From Sulfurimonas sp. (lineage in GTDB: Bacteria; Campylobacterota; Campylobacteria; Campylobacterales; Sulfurimonadaceae), in contig JAMORO010000064.1 in assembly GCA_027063505.1 (NCBI GenBank), forward strand, positions 4,343 through 68,342: a DNA stretch of 64,000 bases. The letters are read 5' to 3'. How positions within the stretch are numbered: position 1 is the first letter of the stretch; each line of letters begins with the position of its first letter. Made by a program: the position numbers and the translations under genes. The notes under the pieces are model-generated. The model had not been told where the DNA came from. It searched no databases and was given only the letters and a program-made list of their open reading frames with translations. Shown piece by piece: positions 2,138 through 41,441 of the stretch.

Positions 2138-2855
2138 TCGAAAAGGAGGCTCTGCAAAGACAACAACTGCTGTTAATATTGCAAGTGGTTTAGCAAAGCA
2201 TGGTTCAGTCCTTTTACTTGATTTTGATACACAAGGGCATGCTTCTATAGGGGTAGGGTGCGAACCAGATGAAAATATAGGAGTTCACTCTATCTTTGAT
2301 GGTTCTACTCTTAGTGAGACATTTATACCCACTGTACATGAAAATCTTACTCTCTCTCCTGCATTAGTAAATTTTGATGTATATGAGTATGCTGACTTAA
2401 GAGGGATACTTAAAAATCGATTTAAACGTGAAAAGATAGCAGATTTTTTTGACTACTGTGTCATAGATACTCCTCCTACTTTTGATGCACTGTTGAAAAA
2501 TTCTCTCGAAGTTGCAGATAGTGTAGTCATTCCTTTTGTGCCACATCATTTAGGTGTTGTTGCTGTTGGACAGATGCTTCGAGCACTTTATCAAAGTGCT
2601 AAAGTACAGGAGAGAGAGATTGCAGATGTATCTATTCTCCCCGTAATGTATAATCCTCATATTAATGAGCACAAAGAATCTGTTGAAAAAGTAAAAATAT
2701 CTTTTGGTAAAGAGAAACTCTTAAAACCAATAGGTGTAGATATTAAGCTTGCACAACAGTTTGAATCTGGAAAACCTATTATCTTAGATGTAAAGAGATC
2801 TAAGGGAATGAAAGATTACAAACAGTGTGTTGATGACCTATTAAAAAGAATTTAA
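2115..2855 (+). CDS. ParA/Soj-family ATPase inside the chemosensory cluster
   Basis: Deviant Walker A NRKGGSAKTTT, DFDTQG, DTPP. GTG start overlapping the STAS gene. Confidence 0.9.
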   Translation: MKTIVVSNRKGGSAKTTTAVNIASGLAKHGSVLLLDFDTQGHASIGVGCEPDENIGVHSIFDGSTLSETFIPTVHENLTLSPALVNFDVYEYADLRGILKNRFKREKIADFFDYCVIDTPPTFDALLKNSLEVADSVVIPFVPHHLGVVAVGQMLRALYQSAKVQEREIADVSILPVMYNPHINEHKESVEKVKISFGKEKLLKPIGVDIKLAQQFESGKPIILDVKRSKGMKDYKQCVDDLLKRI

Positions 2856-2856
2856 G

Positions 2857-4365
2857 ATGCAAGAAGTACAGAAACTAAAAATTCTTGCGTGTGAAGCAGA
2901 TATAAGAATTTTAAGTCGACTAGAGTCTTGGATTTTAGCAATAAACCATGATGTGATTATTACTAGCGATGGAGTTGCTGCTTTAGAGGTATTTAAAAAT
3001 GAGAAGCCAGATATAGTACTCCTTTCGCAAGAACTTAAAAATATGGGTGGACTTGAGCTTTTAGCAAGTATAAAAGAAGTTGTTCCTACTCAAGCAACAA
3101 TCTTGATGCTTGGTGATAATGATATGAGTATTTTTAAACGTACTATTGAACTTCAAGTTGATAAATACTTAAATAAACCCATTGAAGCAAAATATCTGTT
3201 TCAAGCAGTCGATAGTCTCTCTGAAGAGAAGATTTGGCATAAAGAGTTTCGCACACAGAAGAAAGAACTCCAAGATTATAAAGATGCGATAGATCTCTCT
3301 TTTAGTGTTTCTCAACATGATAAAAATGGAAATATAATCTATGTAAATGATCTTTTCTGTGCAACTACGAAACTAGAGTATTCTGACGCAATGGCAGGAA
3401 TAATCAATCCTTTAAATAATCCTAACACAGATATGAAAGTAGTATGGGATGTATTAGAAAAGGAGTTTATCTATAGAGGAAGACAAATCTTTAAATCATC
3501 GAATGGTGAAGAACATATTATTGATATAACAGCGGTTGCATTAAGAGATGAAGAGAATGAAGTATATGAGTATCTTGTTTTTTCAGATGATGTGAGTGAT
3601 ATTATATATGCTGCACGTAAAATTAAAGATCAAGAACTTGACAATAGACTTGAAAAACTTAATCATGCAAGAGAACTTAATAAAGTAAAAGACTCTTTTT
3701 TAACTGTTTTTACACATGAACTTAAGACACCTCTTAATGCAATTATTAATTTTTCAGAGTATGTAGGGAAACATCTTGCAAGAGAAGATTTAAAAAAAAG
3801 AGATAGACTCTTATCTCAAGTAGAAGAGATCAATAAAAGTGGCCACTTCATGCTTGGTATGATTTCAAATCTTATGGATGCTATAAAATTTAGAGATTTA
3901 AAGATAGAGCTTAAGGTAAAACAGATAAATATTGTAAATATTATAGAAAATTCCATTCTCTATAATAAAAAAAATGAATATGATATAAAAGTGATTTTTG
4001 AAAAGAGAGAGGATGTGATTGTTTTTTCAGATCCTGAATATTTTTTAAGTATTTGTAATCATTTACTATCAAATGCTATGAAATATGCTGCAAAAACAGT
4101 GAAAATAAGATTAGTTCAAGAGAATGATGTATGTAGTATTATAATAGAAGATGATGGAGTTGGCTTTAGTAATACTGAACATGTGTTTGAGTTGTTCGAG
4201 CAAGATGATACTGATAGTCTAACCCGAAATGCGACAGGTACAGGTGTTGGGCTTTACATAGTTAAGAAACTTTGTGATAGAATGTCTTACAATTTAGAGT
4301 TACTCTCTAGTGAAGAATTAGGTGGGGCAAAAGTAATCTTAAAAGTCAAAATGGATATTAGATAA
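2857..4365 (+). CDS. Cytoplasmic hybrid histidine kinase (pseudo-REC, PAS, HisKA, HATPase)
   Basis: H-box FTHELKTPLNAI, N-box LLSNAMKY, G1 IEDDGVGF, G2 GTGVGL; PAS-like DKNGNIIYVNDLFC; REC-fold N-terminus; no hydrophobic span seen. Confidence 0.9.
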   Translation: MQEVQKLKILACEADIRILSRLESWILAINHDVIITSDGVAALEVFKNEKPDIVLLSQELKNMGGLELLASIKEVVPTQATILMLGDNDMSIFKRTIELQVDKYLNKPIEAKYLFQAVDSLSEEKIWHKEFRTQKKELQDYKDAIDLSFSVSQHDKNGNIIYVNDLFCATTKLEYSDAMAGIINPLNNPNTDMKVVWDVLEKEFIYRGRQIFKSSNGEEHIIDITAVALRDEENEVYEYLVFSDDVSDIIYAARKIKDQELDNRLEKLNHARELNKVKDSFLTVFTHELKTPLNAIINFSEYVGKHLAREDLKKRDRLLSQVEEINKSGHFMLGMISNLMDAIKFRDLKIELKVKQINIVNIIENSILYNKKNEYDIKVIFEKREDVIVFSDPEYFLSICNHLLSNAMKYAAKTVKIRLVQENDVCSIIIEDDGVGFSNTEHVFELFEQDDTDSLTRNATGTGVGLYIVKKLCDRMSYNLELLSSEELGGAKVILKVKMDIR

Positions 4366-5721
4366 ATGAATATACTTATAGTTGATGATAATAAAAACAA
4401 TAGAATGATCTTACAACTTCTTTTAGAAGATTATATGGAAGATAATGAACTTGATGGAATAGAATTTCTTATAGATGAAGCCTCTGATGGCCTTGAAGCT
4501 ATTCGTAAAACAGATGAAAAAGAGTATGATATTGTTTTTATGGACATTATGATGCCAAACATGGATGGAATTGAAGCAACAAAGCGAATTCGTCAAAAAC
4601 ATAATAAACTACTTATTATTACAGTAAGTGCAGTTGATGATTCAGAAAGACAGAAAGAGATACTTAGTAATGGTGCGGAAGATTATATTTCAAAACCTGT
4701 AAATTCTGATATCTTTAATAGCCGTATGGCAAACTACTTAACACTAATTCACTCAAGACACAAAAAAAAATTACTGAACATAGAGATTATTAAAGTAGTT
4801 AATATCTTTACAAATGATATTTATAGTAGATATACAAACTTTATACTCTCTTCAGAAGATGCTCTCTCTGAACTTTGGGAATATTACCTTTTAGATTTAG
4901 AAAATAAATGTGAAAACTTAAGTGATGTGATTCGAATGGTATTCTCAATTGCTGAAGTACAATTAAAATTGGAGATGGATAGTAATCTTTTTGTTGAAGA
5001 ATCAGAAAATTTTAAATATTTTACAGTTACAAACATTACTGATGTACCAGCAGCCATTATACAGTTGTTACTGAAAAAAAATGAGATTAAATGTGAGTAT
5101 AAAATTGAAAATGATAAGATCTCTTTTAAACTTGTAAAACAGATGGAAAATTTTACAGCATTAGAGGAGCCTATTACTCTTCTAAATAATTCTCCTATTT
5201 CAGCAGAACCTAAAGAGACAATACCTTCTTTTGAAAACTCTTCTTTATCATTAGATTATGCGTCAACACAGTTAGAAGTATTTGACTATATCGAGTCTTA
5301 TGATATGGAAGATATGGAAGAGTATGCTAAGCGACTTCGTTCTTTAATGCTTATTGTTGGAAGTGGTAATGTAAGTGAAGATGAAGTTGTTGAGATATAT
5401 ACCTATATAGAAAAAATCGGAGCTATCCTCTCTGGTTACTCAGAAGTGTATCCTATATCTACCGCATTAAGTGCACTAGCATCTGATATGTCAGCACATA
5501 CCGTTGAATTTATAGAAAATTCGGAAGCACTTGGACCAATGTGTGCCGCATTTAGTAAAGATCTCTCAAACTGGATAGAGCAGTCTTTTTATACAGGGGC
5601 ACCAAGTATAGACTTTATGAATGATACGATAGTTGTAAATTGTCAAACAATAGGAGGGATGCTTAAAATGGATGAAGCACCTGCTGATAGTGATGATTTT
5701 GATGATATATTTGATTTTTAG
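4366..5721 (+). CDS. Response regulator: intact REC plus unrecognised central and C-terminal domains
   Basis: ILIVDD, VFMDIMMP, ITVSA, YISKP. C-terminus ends DDFDDIFDF. Confidence 0.85.
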   Translation: MNILIVDDNKNNRMILQLLLEDYMEDNELDGIEFLIDEASDGLEAIRKTDEKEYDIVFMDIMMPNMDGIEATKRIRQKHNKLLIITVSAVDDSERQKEILSNGAEDYISKPVNSDIFNSRMANYLTLIHSRHKKKLLNIEIIKVVNIFTNDIYSRYTNFILSSEDALSELWEYYLLDLENKCENLSDVIRMVFSIAEVQLKLEMDSNLFVEESENFKYFTVTNITDVPAAIIQLLLKKNEIKCEYKIENDKISFKLVKQMENFTALEEPITLLNNSPISAEPKETIPSFENSSLSLDYASTQLEVFDYIESYDMEDMEEYAKRLRSLMLIVGSGNVSEDEVVEIYTYIEKIGAILSGYSEVYPISTALSALASDMSAHTVEFIENSEALGPMCAAFSKDLSNWIEQSFYTGAPSIDFMNDTIVVNCQTIGGMLKMDEAPADSDDFDDIFDF

Positions 5722-37463: not shown

Positions 37464-37943
37464 ATGAAAAGAAATATTTACATTGATTTTAGTTATTTCA
37501 TTGTTTTAGCAGCATCATTTGGTGCTGTATTAGTTTTAGGTGCTTTTGTTGCACCTGTAGTTTTCCATACAGATAAGATTTTAGTTGCAATGATTATAGA
37601 TAATTATAATGCAGGTATTATAATGGGAGAAATTTTTCATAGATTCTCTTACTGGATTTATTTTTTAGCACTGTTTGTTGCAGTGTATGAAGCTGCGAAG
37701 TATAAAACAGGTGAGCGGGATGCTGTGAGTTTTGCATCAGCAGTTACTGTCCTCTTTAGCGCTTTAATGTTTAGTAGTGTATATGCTCCAAAGATTCTTG
37801 CTATGCAGGCTATGGGGATAGAAGCGACACAAAGCGATACATTTTCTAATATACATATAGCAAGTGAAATTGATTTTAAGATTTTAGCAGTTGCACTTCT
37901 TGTTCTTTTTGTAAGAAGATTGATGCTTCTTCGTATCTCTTAA
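37464..37943 (+). CDS. Four-TM membrane protein (DUF4149-like)
   Basis: LGAFVAPVVF, AG.IMG.IF, F..IH..SE; four hydrophobic spans. Confidence 0.75.
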   Translation: MKRNIYIDFSYFIVLAASFGAVLVLGAFVAPVVFHTDKILVAMIIDNYNAGIIMGEIFHRFSYWIYFLALFVAVYEAAKYKTGERDAVSFASAVTVLFSALMFSSVYAPKILAMQAMGIEATQSDTFSNIHIASEIDFKILAVALLVLFVRRLMLLRIS

Positions 37944-37961
37944 CACTTTTTTAACACTTTT
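37940..37961 (+). promoter_or_regulatory. 11-bp tandem direct repeat (TTAACACTTTT x2), candidate OmpR/PhoB-type operator
   Basis: Exact copies at 37940-37950 and 37951-37961, followed by a TACCAT -10-like box at 37966-37971 and an AAGGA ribosome-binding site. Confidence 0.55.
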
Positions 37962-37999
37962 TTGTTACCATCTACTTACTAAATTATAAAGGAAAGTAG

Positions 38000-38659
38000 A
38001 TGACTTTTTTAAAACTTTTAACCCTCTTAACACTGACTTATAACCTCTATGCAACACCATCCATCTCTGATACTATAAAGGAGAAAAAAATTTACCCTAT
38101 GGGTGAAAAAATATATACTAAAAAATGCCCTACATTAACGATAGATAAGTATAAAAATTATGAACTTCTTCTTCATTCTATAAAAAAAGATGCCATCTGT
38201 ACAAAACTTAATGAAAAACATTCACAAGCATTAGCGATATATCTTTGGGATAAAAAAAGAACACACCATAAAGAGTATAAAAAACTAACAGTTACAAAAG
38301 ATGAGAAATGCCAAGTCTGTGGTATGTATCTTCACTACTACCCAACATGGGTATCTCAAATAAACTATCCAAATAATGAAACATATAAGTTTGATGGTAT
38401 TAAAGATATGATGAAGTTCTATTTTAATAACAAAGAGGGAATAGTAGATATATTAGTACAGGATTACTACTCTCTTAAAACTTTAAATGCACGAGAGGCA
38501 TTTTTTGTTATAGGTAGTGATGTTACAGGACCAATGGGCTATGAGCTTATAGCCTTTAGTGATAAGAAAAAAGCTATGAGTTTCTCTTTAGAGCATAAGG
38601 GGAAAAAAGTACTCAGTTTTGATAAAGTGACTGAGTATATGGTTAGAAGTCTTGACTAA
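38000..38659 (+). CDS. NosL-family exported metal-binding protein with an N-terminal extra domain
   Basis: CQVCGM, FDGIKDM, FFVIGSDVTGPMGYELIAF; signal peptide. Confidence 0.88.
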   Translation: MTFLKLLTLLTLTYNLYATPSISDTIKEKKIYPMGEKIYTKKCPTLTIDKYKNYELLLHSIKKDAICTKLNEKHSQALAIYLWDKKRTHHKEYKKLTVTKDEKCQVCGMYLHYYPTWVSQINYPNNETYKFDGIKDMMKFYFNNKEGIVDILVQDYYSLKTLNAREAFFVIGSDVTGPMGYELIAFSDKKKAMSFSLEHKGKKVLSFDKVTEYMVRSLD

Positions 38660-39827
38660 GGGATTTAATTTTTATCTACTAGAGTATACATTTAAACATA
38701 TAATCCGAAATGGATTTAAAAACCTATTTTTAACTGTAGTCATGACACTTCTTGTCGCTCTTTTAGCTAGTACATTTTTTCTCTCAAATGCGCTCAAACT
38801 AGAGTATACGAAAAAAATACAGAACACTCCCGATATAATTATTACAGATACAAAAGCGATGAGAGAGACTTTAATAGATGAAAATCTTGTTTCTGACCTT
38901 CTCTCCATAAATGGTGTTAGTTTAGCACTGCCAAGGGTTTATGGGGCTTACTACTTCTCTAAGGCTGATACTATTTTTAAAGTTATAGGTGTTGATGAGT
39001 TTGAGACATATCCAGATAAGAGTTTAAATGCACTTCTTTTAAAAAACACTTTAGATGAAAATTCTATGCTTGTTAGCAAGAGTGTTGCTAAGATACTTAA
39101 AGAGAACTATTACGACAGTTATTTTAATTTTGTAAACGCTGATGGAACACTTAAAAAGGTGATAATTGATAAGACTTTTGAGAGTAAAAATAGTTTTAGA
39201 GAGGAGTATCTTATAGTAATGCCTAAGTGCACTGCAAAAGAGATTTTTTCCTACCCTTCATCAATGGTAACAGATATTGCAGTTATGGTTGCTAACGGTG
39301 AAGAGATAGGTTTTATTGCAAAAAAGATAGAGACACTTCTACCAAATGCTAAAGTAAATATAAAAGAAGACCTTTTAGTAGAATATGAGAATCGTATTAA
39401 TTTTAAGAGTGGCTTTTTTCTTACTATATTTATTATCAGTTTTTTTACCTATTTTGTCATAATCTACGACAAAATAAGTGGTTTAAGTAGTGAAGAAAAA
39501 CGAGAAGTAGGGATACTTAAAGCTATAGGTTGGAGAGTAAGTGATATTTTAAATGCAAAACTTTATGAGGGACTTATTATCTCTTTGAGTGCTTATGTAA
39601 TTGGTATTATTATTGCATTTATATATGTTTATATATTAGGTGCACCACTTTTAAAGAGTATATTTCTAAATGCCATTTCACTCTTAGATGATTGTGAGTT
39701 ACTCTTTCGTGTAGATTATGAGACTTTAGCACTTCTTTTCTTCTTAAGTGTACCGCTCTATATTGCTGCAACTATTATTCCCTCTTGGAGTGTAGCAACA
39801 CATGAGGCTGATGAGGTAATGCGATGA
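38652..39827 (+). CDS. FtsX/MacB/LolC-type ABC permease
   Basis: One N-terminal TM, large periplasmic loop, three C-terminal TMs; EKREVGILKAIGW. Confidence 0.88.
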   Translation: MTKGFNFYLLEYTFKHIIRNGFKNLFLTVVMTLLVALLASTFFLSNALKLEYTKKIQNTPDIIITDTKAMRETLIDENLVSDLLSINGVSLALPRVYGAYYFSKADTIFKVIGVDEFETYPDKSLNALLLKNTLDENSMLVSKSVAKILKENYYDSYFNFVNADGTLKKVIIDKTFESKNSFREEYLIVMPKCTAKEIFSYPSSMVTDIAVMVANGEEIGFIAKKIETLLPNAKVNIKEDLLVEYENRINFKSGFFLTIFIISFFTYFVIIYDKISGLSSEEKREVGILKAIGWRVSDILNAKLYEGLIISLSAYVIGIIIAFIYVYILGAPLLKSIFLNAISLLDDCELLFRVDYETLALLFFLSVPLYIAATIIPSWSVATHEADEVMR

Positions 39828-40480
39828 TAGAGTTACAAAGTGTAAGAAAAGAGTACAAGGGTGGTATTGTTGCATTAGATGGTGTTGATTTAAAGCTATT
39901 AGAAGGTGAACTTGTTGTTCTTCGTGGAGTAAGTGGAAGTGGTAAGAGCAGTATACTCTCTCTTATTGCTGGACTCTCAAAACCAACAACAGGTGAAGTT
40001 ATCGTAGATAAGAAACGTATTTCAAAACTAGCAGATCACTTCTCTACACTCTATAGAAGAGAGAATATTGGTTTTATATTTCAAAAGTATAATCTTATTC
40101 CAACATTAAGTGTTCAAGAAAACATTTTACTCCCTCTTGTACCACAAAACCTTCCAAAAAAGGAGTTAGAGTCTCGCCTACAGAGAGAGTTAATTAACTT
40201 TAATATAGAGAGTAAAAGAGATGTTATGGTGAGAAATCTCTCTGGAGGCGAACAGCAACGATGTGCAATAGCCCGTGCAAATATTAATAATCCCAAAATA
40301 ATCTTAGCAGATGAACCAACTGCTAATTTAGATGAAAAACTCTCTTTAGAGTTTATTAAACTTATAAAGGAGATGAAGTCGCAGAGTCGTACTATAGTAA
40401 TAGCGACACATGATCCTCTTTTCTTTGATTTAGCATGTGTTGATAGGGTTATAACCGTAAAAAATGGAAAACTCCTTTAG
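39824..40480 (+). CDS. LolD/MacB-type ABC ATP-binding protein
   Basis: GVSGSGKS, GFIFQ, LSGGEQQR, LADEPTANLD, IATHD. Confidence 0.93.
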   Translation: MIELQSVRKEYKGGIVALDGVDLKLLEGELVVLRGVSGSGKSSILSLIAGLSKPTTGEVIVDKKRISKLADHFSTLYRRENIGFIFQKYNLIPTLSVQENILLPLVPQNLPKKELESRLQRELINFNIESKRDVMVRNLSGGEQQRCAIARANINNPKIILADEPTANLDEKLSLEFIKLIKEMKSQSRTIVIATHDPLFFDLACVDRVITVKNGKLL

Positions 40481-41441
40481 TATGCTTATAAATCCAGAGA
40501 TATTGACTCTATATATTTTAAATATACTATTTTTTATTTTTATGAGTCTCGCTTTTGTAATGAGCTTTAAAATTGTTCTTAGATGGGATAGTAGTGCAAC
40601 TACAGAGTTACAATATACTTTAGAGAAGAGAAGTTATCTCAGTGCAACCATTATTAAGTATATTTTTTATATTAAGATTCCGCTATTCCTTTTTTTCATA
40701 TTTACACTTGATAAGATCTCTTTTGTTCTTCCTGGAGCTATGTGTGGGGCAGGGGTTGTAAATGCCAGTGAGTATGCAACACCACTTCTTTTTTTAAAGG
40801 TGATAAATCTTTACCTTTTTGCATACTGGATTACGCTTGATAGTGAAGATATGAAAAGAGAGTCTCAACCCTATCTTAAACAGAAATTTAGCCTCTTTTT
40901 AGTTTTCTATCTGCTTTTTATTATTGAGATAGCTCTTGAGACTACAATGTTTTTAAATATAGACATTAAAAGTGTTGTAGATTGCTGTGGTGCTATTTTT
41001 TCTAATAATGATGACACATACCTTTCTTTAGTATTAAGTATGCCTCATAGCCTTCTTTTATCGCTTTTTTATGGAAACTTTATTCTTATGTATCTAGCAA
41101 GTAGATTCTCTCAGGTGACACTCTTCGCTTTTTTAAATCTTACATTTATTTTTATCTCTCTTATCTCTTTAGTGTCTTTTTTTGGAACATATATTTATGA
41201 GCTGCCTACACATCACTGCCCCTTCTGTCTTTTGCAGCAGGATTATAACTATGTTGGTTATCTTCTGTATGGAGTACTATTTATAGGAACATTTAGAGGT
41301 CTTGTAATAGGATTTATAGAGTTGAGAAAGAATGAACGAGAAAATTCGTATAGAATTTCTCTTTTTTTTAATTCTCTTTTTTTAGTAATAGTGAGTAGTT
41401 ATACACTCCTCTATTTTATAAAAAATGGGGTTTGGCTTTAA
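40464..41441 (+). CDS. Polytopic membrane protein with GAMC, CC and HHCPFC motifs
   Basis: About 8 hydrophobic spans by eye; motifs at 40734-40754, 40983-40988 and 41211-41228. Alternative ATG at 40482. Confidence 0.8.
   Translation: MENSFSMLINPEILTLYILNILFFIFMSLAFVMSFKIVLRWDSSATTELQYTLEKRSYLSATIIKYIFYIKIPLFLFFIFTLDKISFVLPGAMCGAGVVNASEYATPLLFLKVINLYLFAYWITLDSEDMKRESQPYLKQKFSLFLVFYLLFIIEIALETTMFLNIDIKSVVDCCGAIFSNNDDTYLSLVLSMPHSLLLSLFYGNFILMYLASRFSQVTLFAFLNLTFIFISLISLVSFFGTYIYELPTHHCPFCLLQQDYNYVGYLLYGVLFIGTFRGLVIGFIELRKNERENSYRISLFFNSLFLVIVSSYTLLYFIKNGVWL

Follow-up and report, generated by a model that had tools for sequence, protein, structure and literature searches.

A conserved cassette of NosL, a type VII ABC transporter and a Cys-rich membrane protein in Campylobacterota, possibly involved in periplasmic copper handling

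Characterised NosL proteins are delivery chaperones; in S. denitrificans NosL (SdNosL), Cu(I) is bound by Cys62, Met64 and Met145, which are strictly conserved and essential for copper delivery, and Zn(II) by Cys59, Cys62, Cys88 and Asp92, a site that varies (PMC8457098). Here, we have analysed a window of 64,000 nucleotides (nt) from a Sulfurimonas sp. assembly (GCA_027063505.1, contig JAMORO010000064.1, positions 4,343 to 68,342), the window being the whole stretch of DNA under study, and describe in it a cassette of four intact genes on the + strand (38000-41441), which encode a NosL-family protein, the permease and ATPase of an ATP-binding cassette (ABC) transporter predicted to be of type VII, and a membrane protein with eight transmembrane (TM) helices (8-TM protein). 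The source assembly comprises 2.10 Mb in 86 contigs, is 93% complete, and has the window on contig 64.

The closest described system is NosL-NosDFY of P. stutzeri (7osf-7osj, 7znq) and S. denitrificans (7og7), with which the cassette shares the Cys-x2-Cys-Gly-Met and Gly-x-Met-Gly ligands of NosL and a clustered ABC pair; the cassette is often found inside nos clusters. However, the cassette permease is predicted to be of type VII whereas NosY is of the ABC-2 type, NosD is missing, an unrelated Cys-rich 8-TM protein stands where a periplasmic acceptor would be, and the cassette NosL, which is predicted to be soluble rather than lipid-anchored, carries an additional domain with two Cys and has a tandem form in most relatives; in addition, the cassette also exists without nosZ. 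The LolCDE/LolDF, MacAB-TolC, HrtBA and FtsEX systems have the permease fold, the periplasmic domain and the ATPase clade in common with it, but the cassette permease lies far below the family cut-offs of LolCE and MacB, no adaptor, LolA-type or EnvC-type partner accompanies it, and its constant partners are NosL and the Cys-rich protein. A further comparison is offered by the P19/Ftr1-linked system of C. jejuni (cj1658-cj1665) and by FetMP-FetABCDEF, in which genes for a periplasmic metal-binding protein, FtsX-type permeases, an ATPase, a membrane protein and thioredoxin-like proteins are reportedly clustered; P19 and Ftr1 are said to belong to families other than those of the cassette NosL and the 8-TM protein.

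The nearest precedent in the literature is a five-gene insertion, including an ABC permease and an ATPase, that a 2016 paper mentioned briefly in the nos cluster of S. cavolei, and to which it assigned no function. Judged by the gene content given there and by the arrangement in a Sulfurospirillum-like genome described below, this insertion appears to be the same module, placed within a nos cluster, whereas the module of the window stands alone with no nos genes. Apart from this, no mention of the cassette was found in the literature, and searches that combined NosL with FtsX, MacB, LolC or genera of Campylobacterota turned up no functional study of it.

The coordinates of the open reading frames (ORFs) bear out the tight packing described in a first-pass annotation made from the sequence alone. 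The NosL-family gene (38000-38659, +, 219 aa) overlaps the permease gene (38652-39827, +, 391 aa, TTG start) by 8 nt, which in turn overlaps the ATPase gene (39824-40480, +, 218 aa) by 4 nt; the 8-TM protein gene (40482-41441, +, 319 aa) follows after a gap of 1 nt, or with an overlap of 17 nt if an alternative ATG open at 40464 is used (325 aa). Database records of the identical membrane protein start at the later Met, which corresponds to the 40482 start. The same annotation had recognised an exported NosL protein, an FtsX/LolC/MacB-type permease, an ATPase and a membrane protein of about eight TM helices with Cys/His/Met motifs, and all four descriptions were upheld: a hidden Markov model scan against Pfam found NosL (PF05573, 107.3 bits against a cut-off of 24, residues 96-215), FtsX (40.5 bits, residues 259-385) and ABC_tran (114 bits), and eight helices and invariant motifs were found in the fourth protein, as described below.

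The distribution of the cassette was surveyed in 301 Campylobacterota genomes, in which presence was scored by the 8-TM protein and one weak hit was left out. The protein was found in 120 genomes, among them all 13 of the window's genus, 11/11 in family f11 and 4/90 in family f2, and none was found in two genera of 34 genomes each. In most carrier genomes, NosL matches lie 2-3 kb from the 8-TM gene on the same strand. Of 20 diverse Campylobacterota loci, 16 show the order NosL-FtsX-ATPase-membrane protein, and 19 contain the trio FtsX-ATPase-membrane protein; of the four remaining loci, one has NosL downstream, two have no NosL next to the trio, and one lacks a detectable intact permease ORF. 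Extra NosL paralogues flank the cassette in several relatives, and in 14 of the 15 loci with a gap between nosL and ftsX this gap holds an ORF of 62-112 aa with one hydrophobic N-terminal stretch. Although the best 80 loci of a search of genome contigs were all from Campylobacterota, a representative search and the cluster names indicated a wider reach, with longer family members (335-345 aa) in Desulfocapsaceae, Desulfopila, Desulforhopalus and Desulfobulbaceae. Two Desulfobulbales genomes have, in order, genes for a thioredoxin-like protein, NosL, a small ORF (at the two loci where it was called), a MacB_PCD/FtsX permease, an ATPase and the membrane protein. Since the same order recurs in 16/20 loci and in these two genomes, the objection that the four genes are rarely found together elsewhere fails, and the separate module proposed at first reading is, by homology and gene order, a distinct conserved one present in at least two phyla.

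In one relative (G232:C62, L048 6385-7702), two ORFs of 174 and 217 aa lie upstream of the ATPase gene where a permease of approximately 390 aa is expected, an arrangement that may represent a frameshifted or split ftsX.

The window represents a minimal, four-gene version of the cassette. What it adds to the picture is this minimal form, situated at a housekeeping locus in a genome without the nos island and multicopper oxidase that adjoin the cassette in a congener.

The window NosL consists of a signal peptide, a middle domain of approximately 65 aa with two Cys and a C-terminal NosL domain. The Sec-type signal peptide ends ...NLYA/TPS and contains no lipobox Cys, the first Cys of the protein being residue 43, so the mature protein should be soluble in the periplasm. 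In the middle domain (38063-38269, +; GEKIY..C ... C ... ALYLW), C43 and C67 are invariant in 18/18 aligned cassette NosL proteins. The NosL domain (38285-38644, +), delimited by Pfam and the alignment, contains C104-x2-C107-G-M109 and G-P-M179-G, which are the CQVCGM and GPMG motifs read in this protein. A profile built from the 18 cassette proteins matches P. stutzeri NosL (7osf_H) at E 2e-16, and also S. denitrificans NosL (7og7) and A. cycloclastes NosL. C107, M109 and M179 are invariant in all 18 and align with the CGM and GxMG of P. stutzeri NosL, and C104, C107, M109 and M179 of the window protein are at the positions of SdNosL Cys59, Cys62, Met64 and Met145; judged from these alignments, all three of the strictly conserved residues that bind Cu(I) in characterised NosL are present in the cassette NosL. 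At the Zn(II)-site positions, C104 and C107 are kept, and D132 and D136 occupy the positions of Cys and Glu in P. stutzeri NosL. The NosL of most relatives is 340-400 aa long and has a second, N-terminal NosL domain (C-x2-C-G-M ... C-x3-C), which is missing in the window protein and likewise in the NosL of some genomes of Sulfurimonas and of family f4. In two relatives, Cys-rich inserts that look like extra soft-metal sites occur in the linker preceding the second NosL domain, with CKC/CKCN-type repeats (L053:12204-12503) or GCRCC (L056:5554-5805).

The permease has one TM helix, a periplasmic domain of approximately 200 aa and then three TM helices. Its AlphaFold2 model (predicted local distance difference test, pLDDT, 81) gave full-length Foldseek matches to LolE, LolC, MacB, Spr0695, YtrF, HrtB, YbbP and BceB with E-values down to 4e-14 (LolE, LolC and MacB, 4e-14 to 1e-10), and the isolated periplasmic domains of LolC and LolE matched as well at about 1e-6 to 1e-7. 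As modelled, the permease has the mechanotransmitting type VII fold, including a LolC/MacB-type periplasmic domain. No invariant Cys or His was found in an alignment of 20 permease orthologues. The ATPase is intact with respect to Walker A, Q-loop, LSGGEQQR signature, Walker B and H-loop; among NCBIfam models, FtsE (194 bits), a bacteriocin exporter and LolD (178 bits) come closest, all scoring below their cut-offs, and by these similarities the ATPase is assigned to the FtsE/LolD/MacB clade.

The fourth protein could not be placed in a known family: no Pfam or NCBIfam family matched it, a profile search against PDB sequences returned nothing even at E<=10, and Foldseek comparison of its model with the PDB gave 111 matches, none at E<=0.001. 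Its best database matches are Sulfurimonas proteins labelled 'hypothetical', and its profile found 1,070 members among 1.84 billion cluster representatives at E<=0.001, 307 of them at E<=1e-30. The AlphaFold2 model contains eight TM helices (pLDDT 88; predicted template modelling score, pTM, 0.82). In 21 orthologues, M87-C88, C168-C169 and H244-x-C246-P-x-C249 are invariant, that is, five Cys, one His and one Met in the GAMC, CC and HxCPxC motifs of loops 2, 4 and 6. Across the alignment, these three loops contain on average 10.1 Cys, Met and His residues versus 1.1 in the odd loops 1, 3, 5 and 7, and the short odd loops contain on average 7.8 Lys and Arg versus 3.7 in the even loops plus the two termini; according to the positive-inside rule, these counts indicate that loops 2, 4 and 6 face outward.

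The relation of the cassette to NosZ was analysed in the same 301 genomes, in which nosZ was scored by TIGR04246 (E<=1e-30) and was present in 105. Both cassette and nosZ were found in 85 genomes, the cassette without detected nosZ in 35, nosZ without a detected cassette in 20 and neither in 161, in a table whose related genomes are not independent and in which one genus supplies more than 50 of the 'both' class. The 35 cassette-only genomes belong to at least 16 genera, include the source genome and have intact cassette genes. The two traits separate even among close relatives (genus g1: cassette 13/13, nosZ 8/13; genus g22: 12/14 and 6/14; family f11: 11/11 and 4/11; genus g17: 1/10 and 8/10), and strict tracking of nosZ, a possibility raised in the first-pass annotation, therefore does not hold for the cassette; strict dependence was rejected on the basis of this table.

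Nevertheless, the two are clearly associated. In 14 genomes from six families, no more than about 25 kb separates the cassette from nosZ, and in most of these the spacing is 9-13 kb; a nos cluster itself is roughly 9-13 kb long. In a Sulfurospirillum-like genome (G065), one operon contains, in this order, tandem NosL, a small ORF, FtsX, ATPase, the membrane protein, a NosY-like ABC-2 permease, NosL and NosZ. In a congener of the source genome (G245; C4, L040 9120-18001 and L146 1-10408), a NosL-like gene, a Crp regulator gene, genes for a multihaem cytochrome and a multicopper oxidase, and the whole nos cluster come after the cassette, with ftsZ only beyond them. Considering the co-occurrence in 85/120 carriers, the proximity in 14 genomes and the adjacency in G065, it is very probable that NosZ is one client of the cassette. 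In the source genome, a DnaJ-domain gene and ftsZ directly follow the cassette, and the genome is simply without the nos island that its congener has at the same locus. The observation that the window lacks nosZ, nosD and nosY could be extended to the whole 93%-complete assembly, in which no nosZ was found and tblastn for NosZ, NosD, NosY, NosB and the multicopper oxidase of G245 gave no match. The label 'orphan' with an 'unknown client', given to the cassette at first reading, goes too far, as 85 of the 120 carriers have nosZ and 14 genomes have it nearby.

Considering a bona fide NosL site, a mechanotransmitting ABC pair that brings no conserved metal ligands of its own and an outward-facing Cys/Met/His cluster, the cassette may be read as an ATP-driven system for Cu(I) handling or relay at the periplasmic face of the inner membrane, a reading to which we give about an even chance. 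In its favour are also the translational coupling of the four genes, their recurring order in Campylobacterota and Desulfobulbales, the copper-related neighbours in relatives (nosY-nosL-nosZ directly downstream in G065, the multicopper oxidase and nos island in G245, and flanking NosL paralogues at several loci) and the presence of nosZ in 85 of 120 carriers. The 8-TM protein would hold Cu(I) on a cluster of thiolate, thioether and imidazole groups contributed by its GAMC, CC and HxCPxC loops. The type VII ABC pair would turn cytoplasmic ATP hydrolysis into motion of the permease periplasmic domain, and this motion would dock the soluble NosL and drive metal transfer between NosL and the 8-TM protein, by analogy with NosFY driving a NosL to NosD to NosZ relay. 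In the established NosL-NosDFY relay, as Müller and colleagues reportedly described in 2022, the ABC transporter is the conformational motor of copper transfer. NosL could then serve periplasmic copper proteins, which would be NosZ where a nos cluster exists and perhaps a single cupredoxin in the present genome. The earlier suggestion that a mechanotransducing ABC transporter acts on a metal chaperone stands as regards the type VII fold and the kept Cu(I) ligands; as for the metal and the direction, we infer that copper is supplied and not removed, and that the four proteins form one complex. Supply is favoured over removal by the repeated embedding of the cassette in nos clusters.

Several observations weigh against a copper relay. 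The 20 genomes that have nosZ without a detected cassette show that N2O (nitrous oxide) reducers of this phylum may do without it, and a single cupredoxin is the sole periplasmic copper protein detected in the source genome. Two parts that most relatives have are missing from the window cassette, namely the first NosL domain and the gene for the small membrane protein; the source genome has no gap between nosL and ftsX, and tblastn found no match to the small TM protein anywhere in the assembly. Moreover, the Cys motifs of the 8-TM protein, chiefly CPxC, would equally suit a thiol-disulfide oxidoreductase.

More tentatively, the cassette could represent an unrecognised class of metallochaperone system, in which the type VII ABC pair and a Cys-rich protein of new fold would mobilise Cu(I), possibly out of sulfide-bound copper in the sulfidic environments of the carriers, and load NosL for copper enzymes including N2O reductase; this would amount to a second ATP-driven route of copper insertion besides NosDFY. 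No biological sink for the greenhouse gas N2O is known other than N2O reductase, an enzyme whose activity is limited by copper loading in many settings. Sulfurimonas, Sulfurovum, Arcobacter-like bacteria, the Campylobacter-like genus g10 and Desulfobulbales live in habitats where sulfide makes copper scarce. If the proposal is true, the module would explain how periplasmic enzymes are provided with copper in organisms of sulfidic habitats, type VII ABC systems would gain a new type of client, and an unannotated protein family of about 1,000 clusters would gain a function. There are cultured species among the carrier genera, and Wolinella and Sulfurospirillum have been described as genetically tractable.

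Among the alternatives to a copper relay, detoxification of copper or another soft metal survives best, although we consider it unlikely. A MacB-type pump and the Cys-rich protein would then remove Cu(I) from the periplasm or the outer leaflet, with NosL as scavenger. Many type VII ABC systems export or extrude their substrates, including MacB and HrtBA, which are among the fold matches of the permease; an ArsR-type regulator, an ArsP-like permease and a two-component system occur in a Desulfobulbales neighbourhood, and a multicopper oxidase adjoins the cassette in G245. However, no gene for a MacA/HlyD adaptor or an outer-membrane factor lies in or beside the cassette in the window, the cassette recurs inside nos clusters, which belong to a copper-consuming pathway, and delivery is the role of characterised NosL (PMC8457098).

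A thiol-disulfide redox module, in which the 8-TM protein would resemble DsbB, VKOR or CcdA and keep the redox state of Cys in NosL or its clients, with metal being secondary, ranks next and is also improbable. The periplasm-facing CPxC and CC motifs agree with it, and one of the 21 orthologues has a VKOR match that spans the CC loop to CPxC and stays below the cut-off (18.7 bits against 27.5, E 0.002), which we retain as no more than a lead. In addition, a thioredoxin-like gene heads the Desulfobulbales cassette, and a DsbD_2 gene adjoins the cassette in G065 and G273. On the other hand, the VKOR match is missing in the other 20 orthologues, the profile search of PDB sequences was empty, and the 50 best-ranked of the 111 fold matches, none of which reached E<=0.001, include no structure of DsbB, VKOR or CcdA. 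The constant coupling to an ABC motor would also be left unexplained. The redox and relay readings are compatible, and both could hold.

Slightly less likely again is that the cassette is a dedicated accessory of N2O-reductase maturation, bringing copper or sulfide to CuZ/CuA, and that the window copy was left behind when the nos island was lost. The 85 carriers with nosZ among 120, the nosZ genes within about 25 kb in 14 genomes of six families and the nos island of G245, which lies between cassette and ftsZ exactly where the source genome has none, are what such a role would lead one to expect. It accounts poorly for the 35 carriers in which no nosZ was found and whose cassette genes are intact, for the window copy, which keeps all invariant residues of the 8-TM protein, and for the 20 nosZ genomes without a detected cassette; in the large genus g10, furthermore, cassette and nosZ are about 100 kb apart.

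That the ABC pair is simply the housekeeping lipoprotein-release system (LolDF or LolCDE), as the first-pass annotation had allowed, is very improbable and was rejected: although LolE and LolC are the best structural matches of the permease and the permease is the assembly's only TIGR02212 match, this match reaches about 33-35 bits (34.6 bits) against a cut-off of 362, a separate LolC/E-like gene exists in all congeners searched, and the cassette was not found in 181/301 Campylobacterota genomes, an absence that an essential system would not permit. The separate gene (406 aa, 239-258 bits) was detected in 12/12 other genomes of the genus, in fragmentary form in one low-completeness assembly, and most of these genomes also show weak TIGR02212 matches of 25-54 bits, such as the cassette permease gives.

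Beyond the weak match of the cassette permease, the TIGR02212 search of the source assembly found no LolC/E-like (LolF) gene. Since 12/12 congeners have it, this is best explained by incomplete assembly, and the gene probably lies in the missing 7%. The genome has two other FtsX-type systems, FtsEX (contig 86) and, on contig 61, a MacB_PCD permease accompanied by an ATPase.

With regard to possible clients and partners in the source genome, one haem-copper oxidase subunit I and no Sco homologue were found. The cupredoxin mentioned above (102 aa; L153, G000:C68:43500-50500, ORFs 2554-4571, - strand) is encoded in an operon together with a di-haem cytochrome c peroxidase and a di-haem cytochrome c. 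On contig 86 (L154, G000:C86:10500-17000, - strand), a divergent NosL-like gene (ORF 2976-3479) is followed by DsbD_2 (ORF 2266-2976). Its product is membrane-anchored and has a single CGM and PMGYG, and the pair adjoins an HD-domain gene and a tyrosine recombinase; a NosL-like/DsbD_2 pair with 50% identity to it lies beside the cassette in G065 and G273.

The 56-nt gap between the upstream DUF4149 gene and the cassette contains a direct repeat, two copies of TTAACACTTTT (37940-37971, +), of the form TTAACAC-N4-TTAACAC with an 11-bp period. The tandem TTAACACTTTT repeat is identical in G010, another Sulfurimonas-like genome, and is recognisable with substitutions in an S. autotrophica-like genome (G169) and in G011 (TTAACGC...TTAACAC and TGTAACGC...TGTAATAT); no repeat of this type was found upstream of the cassette in G245. 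From its sequence, the repeat is a candidate operator or regulator site. A promoter-like region of its own had been ascribed to the cassette; a consensus scan of the 56-nt gap found no sigma-70 site, which does not favour this claim, and co-transcription with the DUF4149 gene is possible.

According to Pfam and NCBIfam, the cassette is flanked by housekeeping genes: upstream, those for an M48 protease, PrmC and DUF4149 share its strand, and downstream, those for a DnaJ-domain protein, FtsZ and FtsA run towards it.

Two minor observations concern NosL in other genomes. SMUL_3232, a NosL of S. multivorans induced in fermentation, could not be linked to the cassette; its nearest detected neighbours are MobA and a Dabb-family protein, and SMUL_3230 and SMUL_3231 were not detected. 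In a family-f2 genome that forms a single contig of 2.11 Mb (G216), nosZ is in two pieces 1.3 kb apart, accompanied by two copies of the 8-TM protein and six NosL matches.

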